Made by a program: the position numbers and the translations under genes | Notes under the pieces: model-generated | The model's input: the letters and a program-made list of their open reading frames with translations, nothing else | Database searches by the model: none | Told to the model about the DNA's origin: nothing | From: Patescibacteria group bacterium | GTDB lineage: Bacteria > Patescibacteriota > Microgenomatia > PFEM01 > JAHIFH01 | Direction of reading: 5' to 3' | NCBI GenBank assembly: GCA_035529375.1 | Contig: DATKWU010000004.1 | Coordinates: 1-59,331 of the forward strand | DNA length: 59,331 nt | Shown here: positions 5,549 through 47,605 of the stretch, in pieces | Layout of the letters: each line of letters begins with the position of its first letter | How positions within the stretch are numbered: the stretch's first letter is position 1

Positions 5549-6443
5549 TCTCTCGATTATCATTCTTAGCCATAATACTAAAGAACTCTTGGAAAAGTGT
5601 TTAATGGCGGTTGGTAAAGCCGAAGAAAACGATTATTCTTTTAAAACAATTGTGGTTGACAATGCTTCGACTGATGGCTCAGCCAAAATGGTGAAACAAG
5701 AATTTCCTGGGGTAGACTTAATGATCAGTAAAAAGAATCTTGGCTTTTCTGGGGGTAACAACCTAGGTTTAAAAAGGGCCGCCGGCAAGTTTACTCTGTT
5801 TCTAAACTCAGATACAGAAATCAAACCTGATTCCCTTATAAAAATGATTAAGTTTATGGGGAGCGATAACAAGATTGGGGCAATTACTCCCAAAGCCCTT
5901 TTAGTCTCTGGGGGTATGGATCCCGATTGTCATCGGGGTTTTCCCACTCCCTGGGCTTCGATTACTTATTTCTTAGGTTTGGAAAAATTCTTTCCCAAGA
6001 GCAGGTTTTTTGGTCAATACCATCAATTCTATCTTGATTTGGACAAAGCCCATGAAATTGATGCCGGTTTTGGCACCTTTATGTTTGTTCGGAGAAAGGC
6101 TTTAGAGGAAGTCGGCCGTTGGGATGAGTCCTATTTCTTTTACGGTGAAGATCTGGATTTGTTTTACCGAATCAAAAAAGCCGGTTGGAAGAACATGTTT
6201 TATCCGGAAGTCCTTTTAAAACATCACAAAGGCGCTAGTTCCGGTTTAAGAAAAGAATCAAGAGAAATTACCCAAGTGACTCGGGAAACAAGGATAAAAG
6301 TCGCCAAGGCTTCAACCCAGGCAATGGAAATCTTTTACAGAAAATTTTACAAGGATAAGTATCCTTTTTGGTTGACTTTCCTGGTAATTACTGCCATCAA
6401 ATTACTGGGTTTTTTAAGATTACTGCTTCATCGCTTTAAATGA
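5532..6443 (+). CDS. Glycosyltransferase family 2
   Basis: LSIIILSHN, VVDNASTDGS, LNSD, YGEDLDL; start placed at GTG 5532 after SD ggagg 5521-5525. Confidence 0.92.
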   Translation: MAKKIDLSIIILSHNTKELLEKCLMAVGKAEENDYSFKTIVVDNASTDGSAKMVKQEFPGVDLMISKKNLGFSGGNNLGLKRAAGKFTLFLNSDTEIKPDSLIKMIKFMGSDNKIGAITPKALLVSGGMDPDCHRGFPTPWASITYFLGLEKFFPKSRFFGQYHQFYLDLDKAHEIDAGFGTFMFVRRKALEEVGRWDESYFFYGEDLDLFYRIKKAGWKNMFYPEVLLKHHKGASSGLRKESREITQVTRETRIKVAKASTQAMEIFYRKFYKDKYPFWLTFLVITAIKLLGFLRLLLHRFK

Positions 6444-40083: not shown

Positions 40084-41205
40084 ATGAAAAAGAAAATCGT
40101 GATTACCGGCGGCCACGTTACTCCGGCTTTGGCCGTTATTGATGAATTAGAAAAAAAACCTTACCAAATTTATTATTTTGGCCGTCGCTATACTTCTGAA
40201 GCCCATAAAGCCTTGCCCATGGAAGCGGTTTTATTAAGAGAAAAAGAGATTACCTATATCCCTATTACCGCCGGTAAAATCCAGCGCTATTTTGATCAAT
40301 ATACTTTTTTTTCTTATTTAAAAATTCCTCTGGGCTTTTTTCAAGCTTTGGGTTATTTAATCAGAATCAAACCAAACTTAATCATCTCTTTTGGCGGTTA
40401 CGTCAGTGTTCCTGTGGTTTTAGCCGGTTGGTTGTTAAAAATCTCAATTCTGACTCATGAACAAACCGCCAGCTATGGTTTGGCTAGTCGCTTTAATAGT
40501 TATTTTGCCAAGAAAATTGCTGTTTCTTGGCCGATCAGCCAAAAATATTTTCCTAAAAAGAAAGTCATTTTGACCGGTAACCCAATTAGGAAAGAAGTTC
40601 TTCAGACTAATAAAAAAATCTGGCAGGTTTTTGATTTTGACGAAAAATTACCTTTAATTTTTATTACCGGTGGCAATCAGGGTTCTCGAATAATTAATCA
40701 AACCGTCAGTCAATTAATTAATCAGTTAGTTAAGAAATATAATCTTTTTCACCACCTTGGTCCGGTAGGTAGCCAAGGGATTCTTAAAGAGTTGGAAAAG
40801 AGAAGACAAAAGATGCCTTCTCAATTAAGAAATCGTTATCATTTTAAAAAATATCTCGACAGCCAGGAGATGGGTACCTTTTTAAACAAGGCTGATTTAA
40901 TTATTTCTCGGTCTGGGGCCAATACGGTCACGGAACTCGCGGCTTTGGGAAAACCAGCTTTATTCATTCCTCTGCCTTTCGCGGCGACTGATGAACAAAC
41001 GAAAAATGCTCAGCTTTTGGTTACGGCCGGGACAGCGGAGGTTCTACCTCAGGAAAAGTTAAGTCCTAAAAGATTATGGCAATTAATAGAAAAGATGATG
41101 ACTCATCTTGATGATTATCAAAAGAAATCTTCTCAAGCTAAAAAGTTAGTTAAGCTTGATGCTTCCAAAGAAATTGTCAGGTTGGCTGAGAAAATCATCC
41201 AGTGA
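40084..41205 (+). CDS. murG: Lipid II GlcNAc transferase MurG
   Basis: ITGGHVTPA, SFGGYVS, HEQT, TGNPIR, GGNQGS, SRSGANT. Confidence 0.95.
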   Translation: MKKKIVITGGHVTPALAVIDELEKKPYQIYYFGRRYTSEAHKALPMEAVLLREKEITYIPITAGKIQRYFDQYTFFSYLKIPLGFFQALGYLIRIKPNLIISFGGYVSVPVVLAGWLLKISILTHEQTASYGLASRFNSYFAKKIAVSWPISQKYFPKKKVILTGNPIRKEVLQTNKKIWQVFDFDEKLPLIFITGGNQGSRIINQTVSQLINQLVKKYNLFHHLGPVGSQGILKELEKRRQKMPSQLRNRYHFKKYLDSQEMGTFLNKADLIISRSGANTVTELAALGKPALFIPLPFAATDEQTKNAQLLVTAGTAEVLPQEKLSPKRLWQLIEKMMTHLDDYQKKSSQAKKLVKLDASKEIVRLAEKIIQ

Positions 41206-43319: not shown

Positions 43320-44474
43320 ATGGCGCTTGTTAAACCAGATACAGCCAGCTTTGCCAGAATTAAAGTTTTAGGGATTGGTGGTGGTGGTGGTAATGCCATC
43401 AATACCATGATTGAGGAGGAATCAATCAGAGGGGTTGAATTTATTGCCATTAACACCGATGCCCAAGCCCTTCTCGTTAACAAAGCCGAAACGAAAATCC
43501 AGATTGGGGAAAAGCTTACTCGGGGTTTAGGAGCCGGCGGTGATCCCGAATCCGGTCGTCAGGCGGCTGAAGAATCAAGAGAAAAACTAAAAGAATACAT
43601 GGCCGATACGGACATGGTTTTTATCGCCGGAGGGGAAGGTGGCGGAACCTGCACTGGCGCAACGCCGGTCATTGCCGAGATCGCCAGAGAATTAGGGGCT
43701 TTAACGATTGCTGTCGTCACCAAACCCTTTACTTTTGAAGGCACCAGAAGAATGGTCATTGCCGAAGACGGCATTGAGAATCTCAAAGACAAAGTTGATA
43801 CTTTAATTGTCATTCCCAATCAAAGAATTATGGAAGTGATTGACCAAAAAGTCACCTTAGTCGAAGCCTTTAAGGTAGTTGATGGGGTTCTAGGTCAAGG
43901 AGTTCAGGGTATCTCTGACATTATCACCGTTCCCGGATTAATCAACGTTGATTTTGCTGATGTTAAAGCGATTATGGGAGATGCCGGTTCTTCTTTACTG
44001 GGAATCGGAACAGGAGTGGGCGAAAATCGAGCCCAGGCCGCGGCTCGGGGTGCCATTTCCTCCCGTCTCTTAGATGTTTCGATTGAGGGAGCTAAGGGTA
44101 TTCTTTTCAATGTTACTGGCGGCAAGGATTTGACCATGTCTGAGGTTGATGAAGCCGCGAAAATCATTTCCACCGCGGCGGATGCTGATGCGAATATTAT
44201 CTTCGGCGCCGTGATTGATGATAATATGGTCGACCAGATTAAGATTATTGTCATTGCCACTGGTTTTGACGAAGCCAGACTTCGTCTCGCCAAACTAGCC
44301 AGATTAAGATCTCCTAGAACCGAACCTAGAGGGATTATCAGTGAAAAACCAGAACCAGGAGAAGAAATAAGAGAACCAGAGGAAGAAGAACCGGAAAGAA
44401 AAGAGAAAGCAGAAGAAGAGGAAGAAGACTATTCTGAATTTGATATTCCTGCTTTCTTGAGGCAGGGAAGGTAA
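43320..44474 (+). CDS. ftsZ: Cell division protein FtsZ
   Basis: GIGGGGGNA, NTDAQAL, GGGTCTG tubulin motif, INVDFADV, C-terminal DIPAFLR. Confidence 0.98.
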   Translation: MALVKPDTASFARIKVLGIGGGGGNAINTMIEEESIRGVEFIAINTDAQALLVNKAETKIQIGEKLTRGLGAGGDPESGRQAAEESREKLKEYMADTDMVFIAGGEGGGTCTGATPVIAEIARELGALTIAVVTKPFTFEGTRRMVIAEDGIENLKDKVDTLIVIPNQRIMEVIDQKVTLVEAFKVVDGVLGQGVQGISDIITVPGLINVDFADVKAIMGDAGSSLLGIGTGVGENRAQAAARGAISSRLLDVSIEGAKGILFNVTGGKDLTMSEVDEAAKIISTAADADANIIFGAVIDDNMVDQIKIIVIATGFDEARLRLAKLARLRSPRTEPRGIISEKPEPGEEIREPEEEEPERKEKAEEEEEDYSEFDIPAFLRQGR

Positions 44475-44516
44475 ACCCCTTGTGGTTCAAAAAATTATTT
44501 GTTAGAATAAACCCTA

Positions 44517-44570
44517 ATGGAAAAATTAATTAATAAGATTAAAAAGTTTATCGGTATTATTAGTAAATAG
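44517..44570 (+). CDS. Putative ileS leader peptide (17 aa, 5 Ile)
   Basis: MEKLINKIKKFIGIISK; ATG 8 nt after TGtTAGAAT (44500-44508), i.e. leaderless; followed by hairpin and terminator. Confidence 0.6.
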   Translation: MEKLINKIKKFIGIISK

Positions 44571-44597
44571 GAGCTGTGGTAAAAGCCATGGCTTCTG

Positions 44598-44628
44598 AAG
44601 TCGTCCTTAAAAACAAGGACGATTTTTT
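44598..44628 (+). terminator. Rho-independent terminator (attenuator) upstream of ileS
   Basis: tcgtcctt-aaaaac-aaggacga followed by T6, 13 nt before the ileS ATG. Confidence 0.75.
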
Positions 44629-44641
44629 GTAGAATAAGATT

Positions 44642-47605
44642 ATGAAGAAAAAGAAACCATTTTTTAAACCTGTTTCCTCAAGAGTCAATTTTGTCGAGCT
44701 GGAAAAAAAGATTCTGAAATGGTGGTATCAATCTGGTTTGGTGGAAAAATATCTTCAACGCAATCGTCAGTCTAAAAAACGCTTTTCTTTTTTAGATGGT
44801 CCGATTACGGCCAATAATCCTATGGGTGTTCATCATGCCTGGGGCAGAACCTACAAAGATTTATGGCAGCGGTTTTTTAATATGAGAGGCTATAAACAGC
44901 GTTTCCAGAATGGTTTTGATTGTCAAGGTCTTTGGGTTGAGGTAGAGGTGGAAAAGGAACTTGGTTTTAAGAATAAAAAAGATATTGAGGATTATGGTAT
45001 TGCTAAGTTTGTTGAGAAATGTAAAGCCAGAGTTAATCAATATGCCAAAGTTCAAACCGATCAATCTAAGCGCTTAGGTTTTTTCATGGATTGGGATAAT
45101 TCCTATTACACGATGAGCGATGAGAATAATTACATGATTTGGGCTTTTCTGAAAAAGTGCTGGCAGGACGGCAATCTTTATAAAGGTTGGGATACAGTCA
45201 CTTGGTGTCCCCGTTGCGGCACGGCCATTAGTGAACATGAAATTCTCACTGAAGAATATCAAGAATTAACCCATACCGCCATTTATCTACGTTTTCCAAT
45301 TGTTGGCCGAAAAAATGAATATCTTTTAGTCTGGACCACCACGCCCTGGACAATTCCCGCTAATGCTTTGATTGCCGCCAATCCAGAGATAATTTATGCT
45401 CAGGTTGAATTTGAAAAAAAGAAATATTGGCTGGCGGCTAGTTTGGTACCTAGAGTTTTTGGCAAAAATGTGAAGATCATTAAAAAAGTTAAGGGAAAAG
45501 AATTAATAGAAAAAGAAAAGATAAAACATTACCAGGCGCCTTTTGAAGATTTACCAATGATTAAGAAAATGAGGAAGAAGCCTTATTTCTATTCTCTGGT
45601 TTTATCAGAAGAATTAGTTAATGAAGCTGAAGGAACAGGTTTAGTTCATATCTCACCCGGAACCGGAACCGAAGACTATCGCTTTGTAGTCAAGGATTTG
45701 GGCTGGCGGGAAATTGTTTTTCCGGCTGTTGACGAAGCTGGCCGCTACATCCAAGGTTACGATTGGCTAGAAGGTAAGAGCGCTAAAGAAAAACCAAATC
45801 TAATCATTGATTATCTCAAAAAAGAAAAGAACGATTTCTTTTTTAAGACCGAAGAATACACTCATCGTTATCCTGTTTGTTGGCGTTGTAAAAGCGAATT
45901 GATCTGGCGCTTAGTTGAAGAGTGGTATATTGCCATGGATGATAATAATCAGAAAAAGGCCAAGAATTACCGTCAGCAAATGATTAAAGTGGCGAAGAAG
46001 GTTGAATGGTTGCCTTCTTTTGGTCTTGATCGAGAGTTGGATTGGTTGCGAAATATGGAAGACTGGATGATTTCTAAGAAAAGATATTGGGGATTAGCCT
46101 TACCGGTTTGGGAATGCGATTGTGGCCACTTTGAGGTCGTTGGTTCTAAAGAAGAATTGAAGAAAAAAGCGGTTAAAGGTTGGGAGAAGTTTACTGGCCA
46201 CACGCCTCATCGGCCTTGGATTGATGAAGTTAAAATTCAGTGTCCGAAATGTAATAAGGAGATGAATCGGGTAGCTGATGTCGGCAATCCCTGGCTTGAT
46301 GCTGGTATTGTTTCTTTTTCGACTTTAGTTGATCCTCAAACTAAGAAAGTAAGCTATTTGACTGATAAAAAATATTGGCGAGAATGGTTTCCGGCTGATT
46401 TTATTACCGAATCCTTTCCCGGCCAATTTAAAAACTGGTTTTACTCAGTCATTGCCATGGCTACGGTTTTAGAAAACAGAAAACCCTACAAAGCGGTTTT
46501 AGGCTACGCCACGCTTTTGGCTGAAAATGGTCAGCCAATGCATAAATCTTCTGGCAATATGATTGAATTTGACGAAGCGGCCGAAAAAATTGGAGTTGAC
46601 GTCATGCGTTGGATTTACACTCGTCAAAATCCGGCCAATAATCTTTTGTTTGGTTATCATCTGGCTGATGAAACCAGACGCCGCTTTCACCTTATCCTTT
46701 GGAACGTTTTTAACTTTCTTATTACCTATGCCAATCTCGATCGCTGGCAGCCAAGAAAAGAATTATCTTCAAAACCAACCAAGCTCGATTTATGGATTTT
46801 AACCAGACTTGATGAGGTGATTATCAAAGTCACCAGAAAGATGGAGGCTTATGATGTCAGTAAAGCGACCCAGATAATTGAGGACTTTGTTCAGGATCTA
46901 TCAACCTGGTATCTACGTCGTTCTCGGGGACGAGTTGGTCCCACCGTTCAAGATAAAAAGGACAGAGATTTAACTTACAGTGTTCTTTATACGGTTTTAT
47001 TAACCTTGACCAAGGTTTTAGCTCCGCTGACACCCTATTTAGCTGAAGAAATTTATCAAACCCTAGTTAATGGCGGTCGGTTAAACGTTAAAGATTCAGT
47101 TCATTTGGCTGATTGGCCAGAGGTCAGAACAAAAGAAGTTTTAGATAAAAAACTCTTGGTCCAAATGGAACAGGTGAGAAAAATCTGCGAATTGGGTCAC
47201 GCAATTCGCAAAGAAGAAAAGATCAAAGTCAGACAGCCGCTGCAATTAATTAAGGTTGCCACAAAAGCAAAAATAGATTTAGATGACGAGTTAACCCAAT
47301 TAATTTTAGAGGAACTCAATCTTAAACAAGTCAGCTGGCAAGTAGAAACTAAACAAAAAGATGAGATTGAGGTTAAATTGGAAACTAAAATTACTCCTAA
47401 ACTCAAAGCTGAAGGCGAGTTAAGAGAAATGATTCGGTGTGTCCAAGAATTAAGAAAAGAAGCAGGTTGTCAATTAGATGAAAAGATAATCGTTACTTTA
47501 CCTAAACTGCCCAAAGAAAAGAAAATGCTTGATTATTTTAAGCAAGCGACTTTAGCCAAAGAAGTAAAAAAAGGTGAAAAGATAATTCTTAGCAGGCAAA
47601 AATGA
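44642..47605 (+). CDS. ileS: Isoleucine--tRNA ligase (type 2, GVHH signature)
   Basis: FLDGPITAN, GVHH (HIGH variant), GFDCQGL, WTTTPWT, GTGLVH, DWMISKKRYWG, PMHKS (KMSKS variant). Confidence 0.97.
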   Translation: MKKKKPFFKPVSSRVNFVELEKKILKWWYQSGLVEKYLQRNRQSKKRFSFLDGPITANNPMGVHHAWGRTYKDLWQRFFNMRGYKQRFQNGFDCQGLWVEVEVEKELGFKNKKDIEDYGIAKFVEKCKARVNQYAKVQTDQSKRLGFFMDWDNSYYTMSDENNYMIWAFLKKCWQDGNLYKGWDTVTWCPRCGTAISEHEILTEEYQELTHTAIYLRFPIVGRKNEYLLVWTTTPWTIPANALIAANPEIIYAQVEFEKKKYWLAASLVPRVFGKNVKIIKKVKGKELIEKEKIKHYQAPFEDLPMIKKMRKKPYFYSLVLSEELVNEAEGTGLVHISPGTGTEDYRFVVKDLGWREIVFPAVDEAGRYIQGYDWLEGKSAKEKPNLIIDYLKKEKNDFFFKTEEYTHRYPVCWRCKSELIWRLVEEWYIAMDDNNQKKAKNYRQQMIKVAKKVEWLPSFGLDRELDWLRNMEDWMISKKRYWGLALPVWECDCGHFEVVGSKEELKKKAVKGWEKFTGHTPHRPWIDEVKIQCPKCNKEMNRVADVGNPWLDAGIVSFSTLVDPQTKKVSYLTDKKYWREWFPADFITESFPGQFKNWFYSVIAMATVLENRKPYKAVLGYATLLAENGQPMHKSSGNMIEFDEAAEKIGVDVMRWIYTRQNPANNLLFGYHLADETRRRFHLILWNVFNFLITYANLDRWQPRKELSSKPTKLDLWILTRLDEVIIKVTRKMEAYDVSKATQIIEDFVQDLSTWYLRRSRGRVGPTVQDKKDRDLTYSVLYTVLLTLTKVLAPLTPYLAEEIYQTLVNGGRLNVKDSVHLADWPEVRTKEVLDKKLLVQMEQVRKICELGHAIRKEEKIKVRQPLQLIKVATKAKIDLDDELTQLILEELNLKQVSWQVETKQKDEIEVKLETKITPKLKAEGELREMIRCVQELRKEAGCQLDEKIIVTLPKLPKEKKMLDYFKQATLAKEVKKGEKIILSRQK

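Follow-up and report, generated by a model that had tools for sequence, protein, structure and literature searches.

A conserved isoleucine-codon leader unit upstream of ileS in Microgenomates-type bacteria, a candidate tRNA-sensing attenuator of non-classical design

The region between ftsZ and ileS

We analysed a 59,331-nucleotide (nt) stretch of DNA from an uncultivated Patescibacteria group bacterium (the window; contig DATKWU010000004.1 of assembly GCA_035529375.1, genome G000), and within it the 167-nt gap between the stop codon of ftsZ (44474) and the ATG of ileS, the gene for isoleucyl-tRNA synthetase (44642). This gap holds, in order, an extended −10 box (P1), a short isoleucine-rich upstream open reading frame (uORF), a hairpin rooted in the stop codon of that frame (hairpin 1, H1), an intrinsic terminator and a further −10-like box (P2) just ahead of ileS (Table 1). 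An initial annotation of the window had proposed that the region controls ileS by leader-peptide attenuation. The −10 box, the ATG 8 nt further on, the Ile-rich frame, the hairpin and the terminator stem with its T6 that it described are all found where it placed them; its hairpin (44572–44593) is part of a longer one, and it overlooked P2.

RNAfold predicts two abutting hairpins for the leader region (−35.8 kcal/mol; z = −4.96 against 200 shuffles). The first begins at the A that is the second base of the UAG stop codon. In the second, GAAG at 44597–44600 is able to extend the terminator stem onto the U run, giving a GC-containing stem of 8–12 bp with a predicted span of 44597–44626. The uORF start codon lies 8 nt past the P1 hexamer, which predicts a leaderless mRNA, and five of the 17 residues of its peptide are isoleucine, three of them within the last six; besides the adjacent pair of Ile codons listed in Table 1 there is an ATC at 44550–44552. 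By itself this composition (5 Ile in 17 codons vs 8% Ile in the proteome) is only mildly unusual by chance, but given its conservation in 17–18 related sequences the leader unit is, as judged by sequence comparison, far beyond chance.

Table 1. Features of the ftsZ–ileS region in window coordinates; P1 and P2 are predicted from sequence only
Feature	Position	Strand	Remarks
ftsZ	43320–44474	+	Upstream gene; Pfam Tubulin and FtsZ_C domains
P1, extended −10 box	44500–44508	+	TGTTAGAAT (TGtTAGAAT); hexamer 44503–44508
Leader ORF (uORF)	44517–44570	+	MEKLINKIKKFIGIISK*, 17 codons; UAG stop 44568–44570
Ile-Ile pair	44556–44561	+	ATT ATT; starts 13 and 10 nt upstream of first H1 base pair
Hairpin 1 (H1)	44569–44596	+	12 bp, loop AAAA, about −17 kcal/mol (RNAfold)
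Intrinsic terminator	44597–44628	+	Core 44601–44608/44615–44622 (UCGUCCUU/AAGGACGA), loop AAAAAC, T6 44623–44628
P2, −10-like box	44630–44635	+	TAGAAT, 6 nt before ileS ATG
ileS	44642–47605	+	Isoleucyl-tRNA synthetase, 987 aa; TIGR00392 equivalog, 660 bits (cut-off 621); Pfam tRNA-synt_1 and Anticodon_1

The region matches no known RNA family. A search of 44300–44800 with Rfam found neither a T-box (RF00230) nor another relevant family down to E = 10, in agreement with the initial annotation, which had seen no room for a T-box in the gap. The curated amino-acid leader models (His_leader, Leu_leader, Thr_leader, Trp_leader, Phe_leader and similar) likewise gave no match with cmscan at E ≤ 10, a threshold that yielded chance-level matches only (for example, snoRNAs, and PyrR at 18.5 bits). 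Two further coding possibilities were rejected. A programmed frameshift or read-through finds no slippery X XXY YYZ site in AUUAUUAUU on inspection, and the frames after the UAG are not conserved (L001–L003 vs L004); a further small ORF that spans the terminator (ATG at 44587, MASEVVLKNKDDFL) loses its start codon in L002, where it reads ATA.

Most genes in the window lack a Shine-Dalgarno sequence, and several have TAnAAT 6–9 nt ahead of their ATG. Genome-wide, a −10 hexamer stands 4–10 nt upstream of 163 of 648 long ORFs, compared with 67 in shifted control windows; this enrichment indicates that leaderless transcription is a normal mode of expression in this genome, for the uORF with P1 and for ileS with P2. 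A consensus scan pairs P2 with TTAAAA at a 17-nt spacing, and a similar hexamer lies 4–10 nt ahead of the ileS ATG in 80 of 121 AT-rich relatives (11 in control windows). P2 very probably gives ileS a leaderless transcript of its own, independent of the leader; if so, all the leader can do is adjust expression above the level set by P2.

Among the NCBIfam models, the next-best matches of the IleS protein are those of MupA and MupB, the mupirocin-resistant, eukaryote-like type, and both fall well under their cut-offs. A second IleS lineage, 35–42% identical, is carried by relatives in the same order.

Conservation of the leader unit

We used the IleS protein to search 41 related genomes, inspected the regions upstream of the matches, and extended the sampling by a terminator pattern search of 401 genomes of the class and a metagenome scan for close IleS relatives (78 loci). 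Defined as a −10 box, a leaderless ORF of 12–19 codons, hairpin 1 at its stop codon and a terminator, the unit lies upstream of ileS in 17–18 distinct sequences, which come from several Microgenomates-type families and from two deeply divergent IleS lineages; its anatomy is conserved. The genomes concerned are the present one (G000), three of the same family (G001, G002 and G003), four from other families of the order (G006, G008, G011 and G014) and one from another family of the class (G037). The terminator pattern search added G041, where the start of the frame is unclear and may run in from ftsZ. Thirteen metagenome loci carry the unit, 11 of them distinct, and 8 are left once three that repeat genome leaders are excluded. 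Thus the uORF and its Ile enrichment, on whose conservation the initial annotation had staked its proposal, are kept in ileS upstream regions across families.

The G041 locus (L112) is peculiar in that its frame, ending in ...EIQIIIK*, has 65 open codons, lacks a nearby ATG, GTG or TTG and holds an FtsZ-tail-like PAFL motif; the Ile sensor may there be read as an extension of ftsZ, or the assembly may contain a frameshift.

The leader is absent from the IleS relatives found in named genomes, all of at most 59% identity (Woesebacteria, Roizmanbacteria, Collierbacteria, Daviesbacteria, Chloroflexi and others), and the unit is therefore limited to a group of Microgenomates-type lineages. Synteny of ftsZ and ileS is seen in many relatives; the unit is also retained where the upstream gene is not ftsZ (L004, L029) and where IleS is only 39–41% identical (L027, L029). 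Kept across both upstream genes and IleS lineages, the leader appears linked to isoleucine and not to a gene lineage.

What has been conserved within the uORF is the isoleucine. The leader peptides have diverged almost wholly (MEKLINKIKKFIGIISK, MRYFVERFSKDIIII, MKTEFNNKKIIIK, MRKLISGSKPLVQEIIISP, MMTKSYQYIIIN, MRKFNSSTIIIIS) and have essentially only the Ile run in common, although the peptides of the closest family share a pattern M-E-K/Q-L-I-x-K-I-K. Isoleucine makes up 27% of the residues of the homologous leaders, compared with 8% of the proteome, and selection on these frames is Ile-specific. In 15 of the 17 homologous leaders a −10 box of the form TAnAAT stands 6–9 nt ahead of the start codon, and the uORF is for this reason taken to be leaderless, as the initial annotation had supposed. 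The Ile codons are ATT (42), ATC (9) and ATA (2); nearly all are thus AUU or AUC, which are read by tRNA-Ile(GAU). The genome has this tRNA and also tRNA-Ile(UAU), the reader of AUA (contig C7, 2345–2418, minus strand).

The position of these codons relative to H1 is fixed. In all leaders an invariant pair of Ile codons has its first bases 12–14 and 9–11 nt ahead of the first H1 base pair. Where the stop codon is TAA with three extra bases after it (L136, L139), the pair is shifted by one codon relative to the stop; in the metagenome locus L131, compared with L143, the leader TAG has become CAG and translation would stop 9 nt later, within H1, with the Ile–H1 spacing unchanged. That the spacing is kept despite moved stop codons, as in L131, argues that selection acts on the distance to the hairpin and not on the end of the peptide.

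H1 itself is supported by covariation. In a MAFFT alignment five of its pairs have changed on both sides, and the covariation score of 0.25 (0.154 for shuffles) is reached by none of 500 shuffles; slid controls give at most 0.13. The G·U pairs in H1 assign the structure to the sense RNA. Between divergent lineages the H1 sequences are unrelated, and yet the hairpin occupies an equal position. Its coupling to the uORF is strict: H1 occurs only where the uORF does, so that the 36 nt before the terminator fold with about −17.5 kcal/mol in leader loci vs about −2.0 kcal/mol in ten loci that have the terminator only. Of the hairpins found next to 30 terminators in this genome on their upstream side, H1 is the most stable. 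We considered double hairpins as a general style of terminator in this genome and rejected the idea, as the upstream flanks have a mean energy of −4.8 kcal/mol, with ileS at the extreme. Another terminator with a stable adjacent upstream hairpin (−15.2 kcal/mol) lies at about 68560–68600 of contig C5, plus strand, and may mark a further leader-type unit. Mimicry of the tRNA-Ile anticodon arm, in the style of the ThrRS operator, was also rejected: both hairpin loops vary and lack GAU.

The terminator is found between the leader ORF and ileS in all homologous leaders, and its distribution is wider than that of the leader. Its motif, TCGTCC..GGRCGATTTTT, occurs once in this genome, which disposes of a genome-wide repeat, and in 15 of the 401 genomes of the class; its own order, with 23 genomes sampled, accounts for 10 of these. 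In the inspected loci the motif lies upstream of ileS, with or without a leader; the class-level exceptions are G329 and G283, whose copies stand in unrelated contexts, and G248, where the downstream gene was not identified. The terminator is kept without a leader in G004, G010, G012, G017 and G022. It is the sequence, and not just the structure, that is conserved across families before ileS (AAUCGUCCUU..AAGGRCGAUUUUUU followed by GTAnAAT; window 44601–44635), even in loci without a leader (L005, L008, L010, L026, L028), and this may point to a pause signal, to a protein site or to an element of the P2 promoter. In one of these (L026, from G004 of the same family), about 20 nt separate TGCTAGAAT from the conserved terminator, past which come TACAAT and ileS; this looks like a remnant from which the uORF and hairpin 1 have been deleted; G004 carries the other IleS lineage (42% identical).

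Sibling leaders and ribosome-masked folding

We scanned the same genome for short ORFs with a run of one residue near the C-terminus and a downstream terminator, and confirmed the genes next to them by Pfam, ARAGORN and Rfam. Three such leaders precede the matching synthetase genes. That of leuS, MKFLFSLLDLNLLLLEK (8 Leu in 17), lies on the minus strand of contig C16 at about 5926–6065 (locus L207; C16:6049), and its post-stop segment CUUGGUUUGGGAG pairs with the 5′ arm and loop of the terminator. The pheS leader, MQVPTITQTAFFKFFFT (contig C2, 938–1175; L208), is followed by a terminator, tRNA-Phe(GAA) at 1077–1150, TGTTAGAAT and pheS; an attenuator at this place would control the tRNA gene besides the synthetase. 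The hisS leader, M(SEM)TSLSLHHHCQNRE (MTSLSLHHHCQNRE; contig C18, 40092–40352; L209, C18:40101), has a consensus promoter, TTGACA-17-TAAAAT, that abuts its first ATG, and is followed by a switchable terminator, tRNA-His(GUG) at 40238–40310, TGTTATGAT and hisS. The Leu, Phe and His leaders are all leaderless, and in each the synthetase ATG is immediately preceded by another −10 box, downstream of the terminator or the tRNA. We saw no Val leader before valS and no Tyr leader before tyrS in this genome.

We then folded the leaders with a modelled ribosome whose footprint, as is usual, masks 15 nt on the 5′ side and 12 nt on the 3′ side of the first A-site base; partition-function folding of this kind ignores kinetics and proteins. 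The leuS and hisS leaders switch under this treatment, the terminator being predicted without a ribosome or with one at the stop codon and an antiterminator with a ribosome on the Leu or His codons, and they serve as positive controls. The pheS leader showed no switch in the same folding. The antiterminators of leuS and hisS take as their 5′ arm the segment directly past the stop codon, which is the position of H1 in ileS. The ileS leader both resembles and departs from these siblings: all have a −10 box 7–9 nt before a leaderless ORF rich in cognate codons, a structured segment at the stop codon, a terminator and a second −10 box before the synthetase ATG, but whereas the leuS and hisS post-stop segments pair with the terminator 5′ arm and the fold switches, the ileS segment has a partner of its own and merely abuts the terminator.

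The state of H1 is nevertheless predicted to depend on the ribosome. In masked folding it is intact with the A site at the Ile codon 13 nt upstream, loses 2–3 pairs when the A site is at 10 nt and is gone with the ribosome at the stop codon. The Ile codons lie outside H1, and a stalled ribosome is thus predicted to preserve the hairpin instead of disrupting it.

A candidate attenuator of non-classical design and its alternatives

We propose that the unit at 44500–44628 is a cis-acting attenuator of non-classical design that senses Ile-tRNA ahead of ileS, a reading to which we assign a probability of roughly 0.6. Its role as an isoleucine sensor is very probable. Like classical attenuators, it presents a leader ORF rich in cognate codons and an intrinsic terminator between this ORF and the gene. 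Transcription from P1 would yield a leaderless RNA on which a ribosome, starting at the 5′ AUG, presumably translates the 17-codon frame. A ribosome awaiting Ile-tRNA at the invariant Ile codons would have its leading edge exactly at the foot of H1, which would stay folded; a ribosome that is not starved would advance two to four codons to the stop, unwind H1 and occupy its 5′ arm. The position of the ribosome would thereby set whether H1 is folded or melted as RNA polymerase reaches the terminator 0–5 nt downstream. If the terminator is leaky in one of these states, as we suppose, scarcity of charged tRNA-Ile would send more P1 transcripts past it, to be added to a basal leaderless ileS mRNA from P2. 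By analogy with leuS and hisS, in which the antiterminator sits where H1 does, folded H1 (stalled ribosome) would favour read-through and melted H1 (ribosome at the stop) would permit termination.

Several results weigh against this proposal. No base-pairing antiterminator was found in 17 ileS leaders: the pairing probability of the terminator is 0.8–0.97 at all modelled ribosome positions (first Ile, last Ile and stop). The stretch of RNA present before synthesis of the terminator 3′ arm (H1 3′ arm, spacer and terminator 5′ arm; 2b:3 pairing) shows no more structure than its shuffles (mean z +0.16), and duplexes of the H1 5′ arm with that of the terminator (2a:3) do no better (mean z +0.34). 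Moreover, ileS has a predicted −10 box past the terminator, so expression would be possible without read-through; in a classical attenuator the controlled gene depends on the attenuated promoter, whereas here P2 is predicted before ileS. On an RNA that has read through, the start codon of ileS would lie internally, with no Shine-Dalgarno sequence before it. The same terminator also serves ftsZ, whose transcript must either end there or run through, and it stays conserved in relatives that have no leader. Finally, it is from physiology and by analogy with leuS and hisS that we assume the direction in which the unit responds. The sensor part of the initial annotation, that is, its anatomy and conservation, has therefore stood, whereas a classical antiterminator has not, as the terminator is folded in every modelled state; the annotation had itself found no convincing antiterminator by eye, and this proves to be a property of the whole family. 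A 7-bp pairing AUGGCUU/AAGUCGU in the window's own leader was discarded as weak (−4 kcal/mol) and not conserved. As to read-through, the leuS and hisS leaders, which have classical attenuators, share the same tandem layout of terminator and P2, and this argues that read-through may be functional in this organism all the same.

Because no base-pairing antiterminator is available, the link between H1 and the terminator must differ from textbook 2:3 pairing, and with no competing pairing at hand a steric coupling seems likeliest. One tentative form of it, which we hold as possible and no more, is a mechanical 'distance switch', an attenuator without antiterminator pairing. Under starvation, H1 would fold before a ribosome parked on the Ile pair and shorten the RNA path by about 28 nt; the base of the terminator stem, 0–5 nt on, would be held against the ribosome, and closure of the hairpin in the exit channel of the polymerase would clash with ribosome and H1, giving read-through. 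When charged tRNA is replete, a ribosome at the stop would unwind H1 and free 15–25 nt of slack, and the terminator would form. A possible reason for such a design is that the Ile codons (AUU, AUC and AUA) cannot build a stable stem themselves. An adjacent upstream hairpin may make a terminator weaker or stronger, and H1 may thus act in either direction; data cited in PMC8355165 have tandem hairpins terminating better.

In a rival reading the sensor is the same and the output is another or even the opposite. Folded H1 could form a compound double-hairpin terminator of higher efficiency, or Ile status could act through P2, which overlaps the terminator, by occlusion, polymerase hand-over or shielding, and not by way of read-through mRNA. 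P2 does lie 2 nt past the U run with its −35 region within the terminator loop, the order of terminator and then promoter recurs at leuS, pheS and hisS, and the read-through RNA lacks a Shine-Dalgarno sequence before ileS. We nonetheless consider this unlikely, for in its simple version it would make less isoleucyl-tRNA synthetase when Ile-tRNA is scarce, opposite to every known control of an aminoacyl-tRNA synthetase (aaRS), and the leaders of leuS and hisS, in which P2 is arranged alike, show in modelling ordinary antiterminators that predict more read-through on stalling; P2 activity, furthermore, is itself a prediction. Slightly less probable still is that the unit is an independent small gene, yielding a stable RNA of about 112 nt (encoding a peptide of 13–19 residues, or acting as a small RNA) by constitutive termination, with ileS expressed from P2 only. 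The presence of a complete transcription unit (promoter, ORF and terminator), a terminator that is folded in all modelled states, the predicted promoter of ileS and the peptide pattern shared within the closest family would all fit this. A small gene would not, however, be expected to show what we observe across families, where nothing of the peptide is conserved beyond the Ile pair and what is kept is its distance to the hairpin, not its place in the peptide (L131, L136). The unit also stands always before ileS, even with a different upstream gene and IleS lineage, and cognate Leu, Phe and His versions precede the matching synthetases.

The initial annotation had itself named as a threat to its proposal that the terminator might simply end the ftsZ transcript while ileS has its own transcription start site. 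Half of this holds, in that ileS has the predicted P2. The stronger claim, that the region is an ordinary gene end which terminates and stabilizes the ftsZ mRNA and that the Ile-rich ORF is an accident of A+T-rich sequence, is very improbable. The terminator does follow ftsZ and is conserved without the leader in the five genomes named above, and AT-rich DNA is rich in ATT. But the uORF and H1 persist next to upstream genes other than ftsZ (L004, L029), the Ile pair stays invariant among changing flanking codons, and H1 is absent from loci that have the terminator only, so that conservation and covariation already contradict this explanation.

The proposed attenuator has relatives among known systems, the closest of those described being pheM/pheST of Escherichia coli together with ilvL and ivbL, and differs from each of them. 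In the enterobacterial leaders ilvL (of ilvGMEDA) and ivbL (of ilvBN), Ile, Val and Leu codons sense charged tRNA and control the terminator of biosynthetic operons, and Ile is mixed with GC-containing Val, Leu and Ala codons that form region 1 of the 1:2 stem. The ileS leader shares with them the use of leader-peptide Ile codons as presumed sensor of charged tRNA ahead of a terminator; here, however, the regulatory codons are pure AUU/AUC/AUA and lie outside any stem, 10 and 13 nt upstream of a separate hairpin. Classical attenuators, including pheM, rely on mutually exclusive 1:2, 2:3 and 3:4 pairings. With pheM/pheST of Escherichia coli the ileS leader has in common a short ORF rich in cognate codons, an intrinsic terminator, a synthetase gene and, as presumed signal, the level of charged cognate tRNA, but it lacks the 2:3 pairing, starts at the RNA 5′ end without a Shine-Dalgarno sequence, precedes a gene with its own predicted promoter past the terminator, and belongs to the Candidate Phyla Radiation (CPR). 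The direct counterpart of pheM in this genome is the Phe leader before tRNA-Phe and pheS (C2:938). Attenuation of pheST is mentioned in a passage of PMC1262725.

Elsewhere ileS is controlled by T-boxes, in Firmicutes and, as a translational variant, in Actinobacteria (PMC1262725); passages of PMC7583486 and PMC2494555 also describe it as T-box controlled. The T-box acts on the same gene and the same presumed signal, tRNA-Ile charging, and its Firmicutes type also ends in a terminator; it binds the tRNA directly and has no ORF, whereas the present element has an ORF and no Rfam T-box. A more distant CPR relative (L170) has a sub-threshold T-box match before ileS (46.9 bits, E = 1e-7), and both solutions, T-box and leader peptide, thus appear to occur within the radiation. 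A T-box-like GGUGGUACC box with a terminator stands before ileS in a number of CPR loci (L034, L041, L050, L066, L162, L166, L170 and L189) and in many Chloroflexi loci within L057–L110. Apart from L170, the CPR loci with this box have no Rfam T-box match at E ≤ 0.01, and they could be short or divergent T-boxes. A comparative study of the attenuation of aaRS operons (Lopatovskaya et al. 2010, cited in PMC4833913) may include further attenuators of ileS.

CPR bacteria (Patescibacteria) are generally thought to import amino acids, and to our knowledge almost nothing is known of their gene regulation; no paper in the literature we searched joins Patescibacteria with leader-peptide attenuation. 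The sensor described here is of the known leader-peptide type, and the departures lie in a defining antiterminator that was tested for and is absent, in a leader that is itself leaderless and in a second, predicted promoter. These results suggest that the level of charged tRNA-Ile, and also that of charged tRNA-Leu, tRNA-Phe and tRNA-His, is monitored in a group of Microgenomates-type bacteria by leaderless mini-ORFs ahead of the corresponding synthetase and tRNA genes, and that the conserved architecture of the Ile version is incompatible with textbook competition between hairpins. The element would also offer synthetic biology a compact Ile-responsive part of about 130 nt. If the link between H1 and the terminator is indeed steric, it would represent a new principle of communication between ribosome and polymerase.

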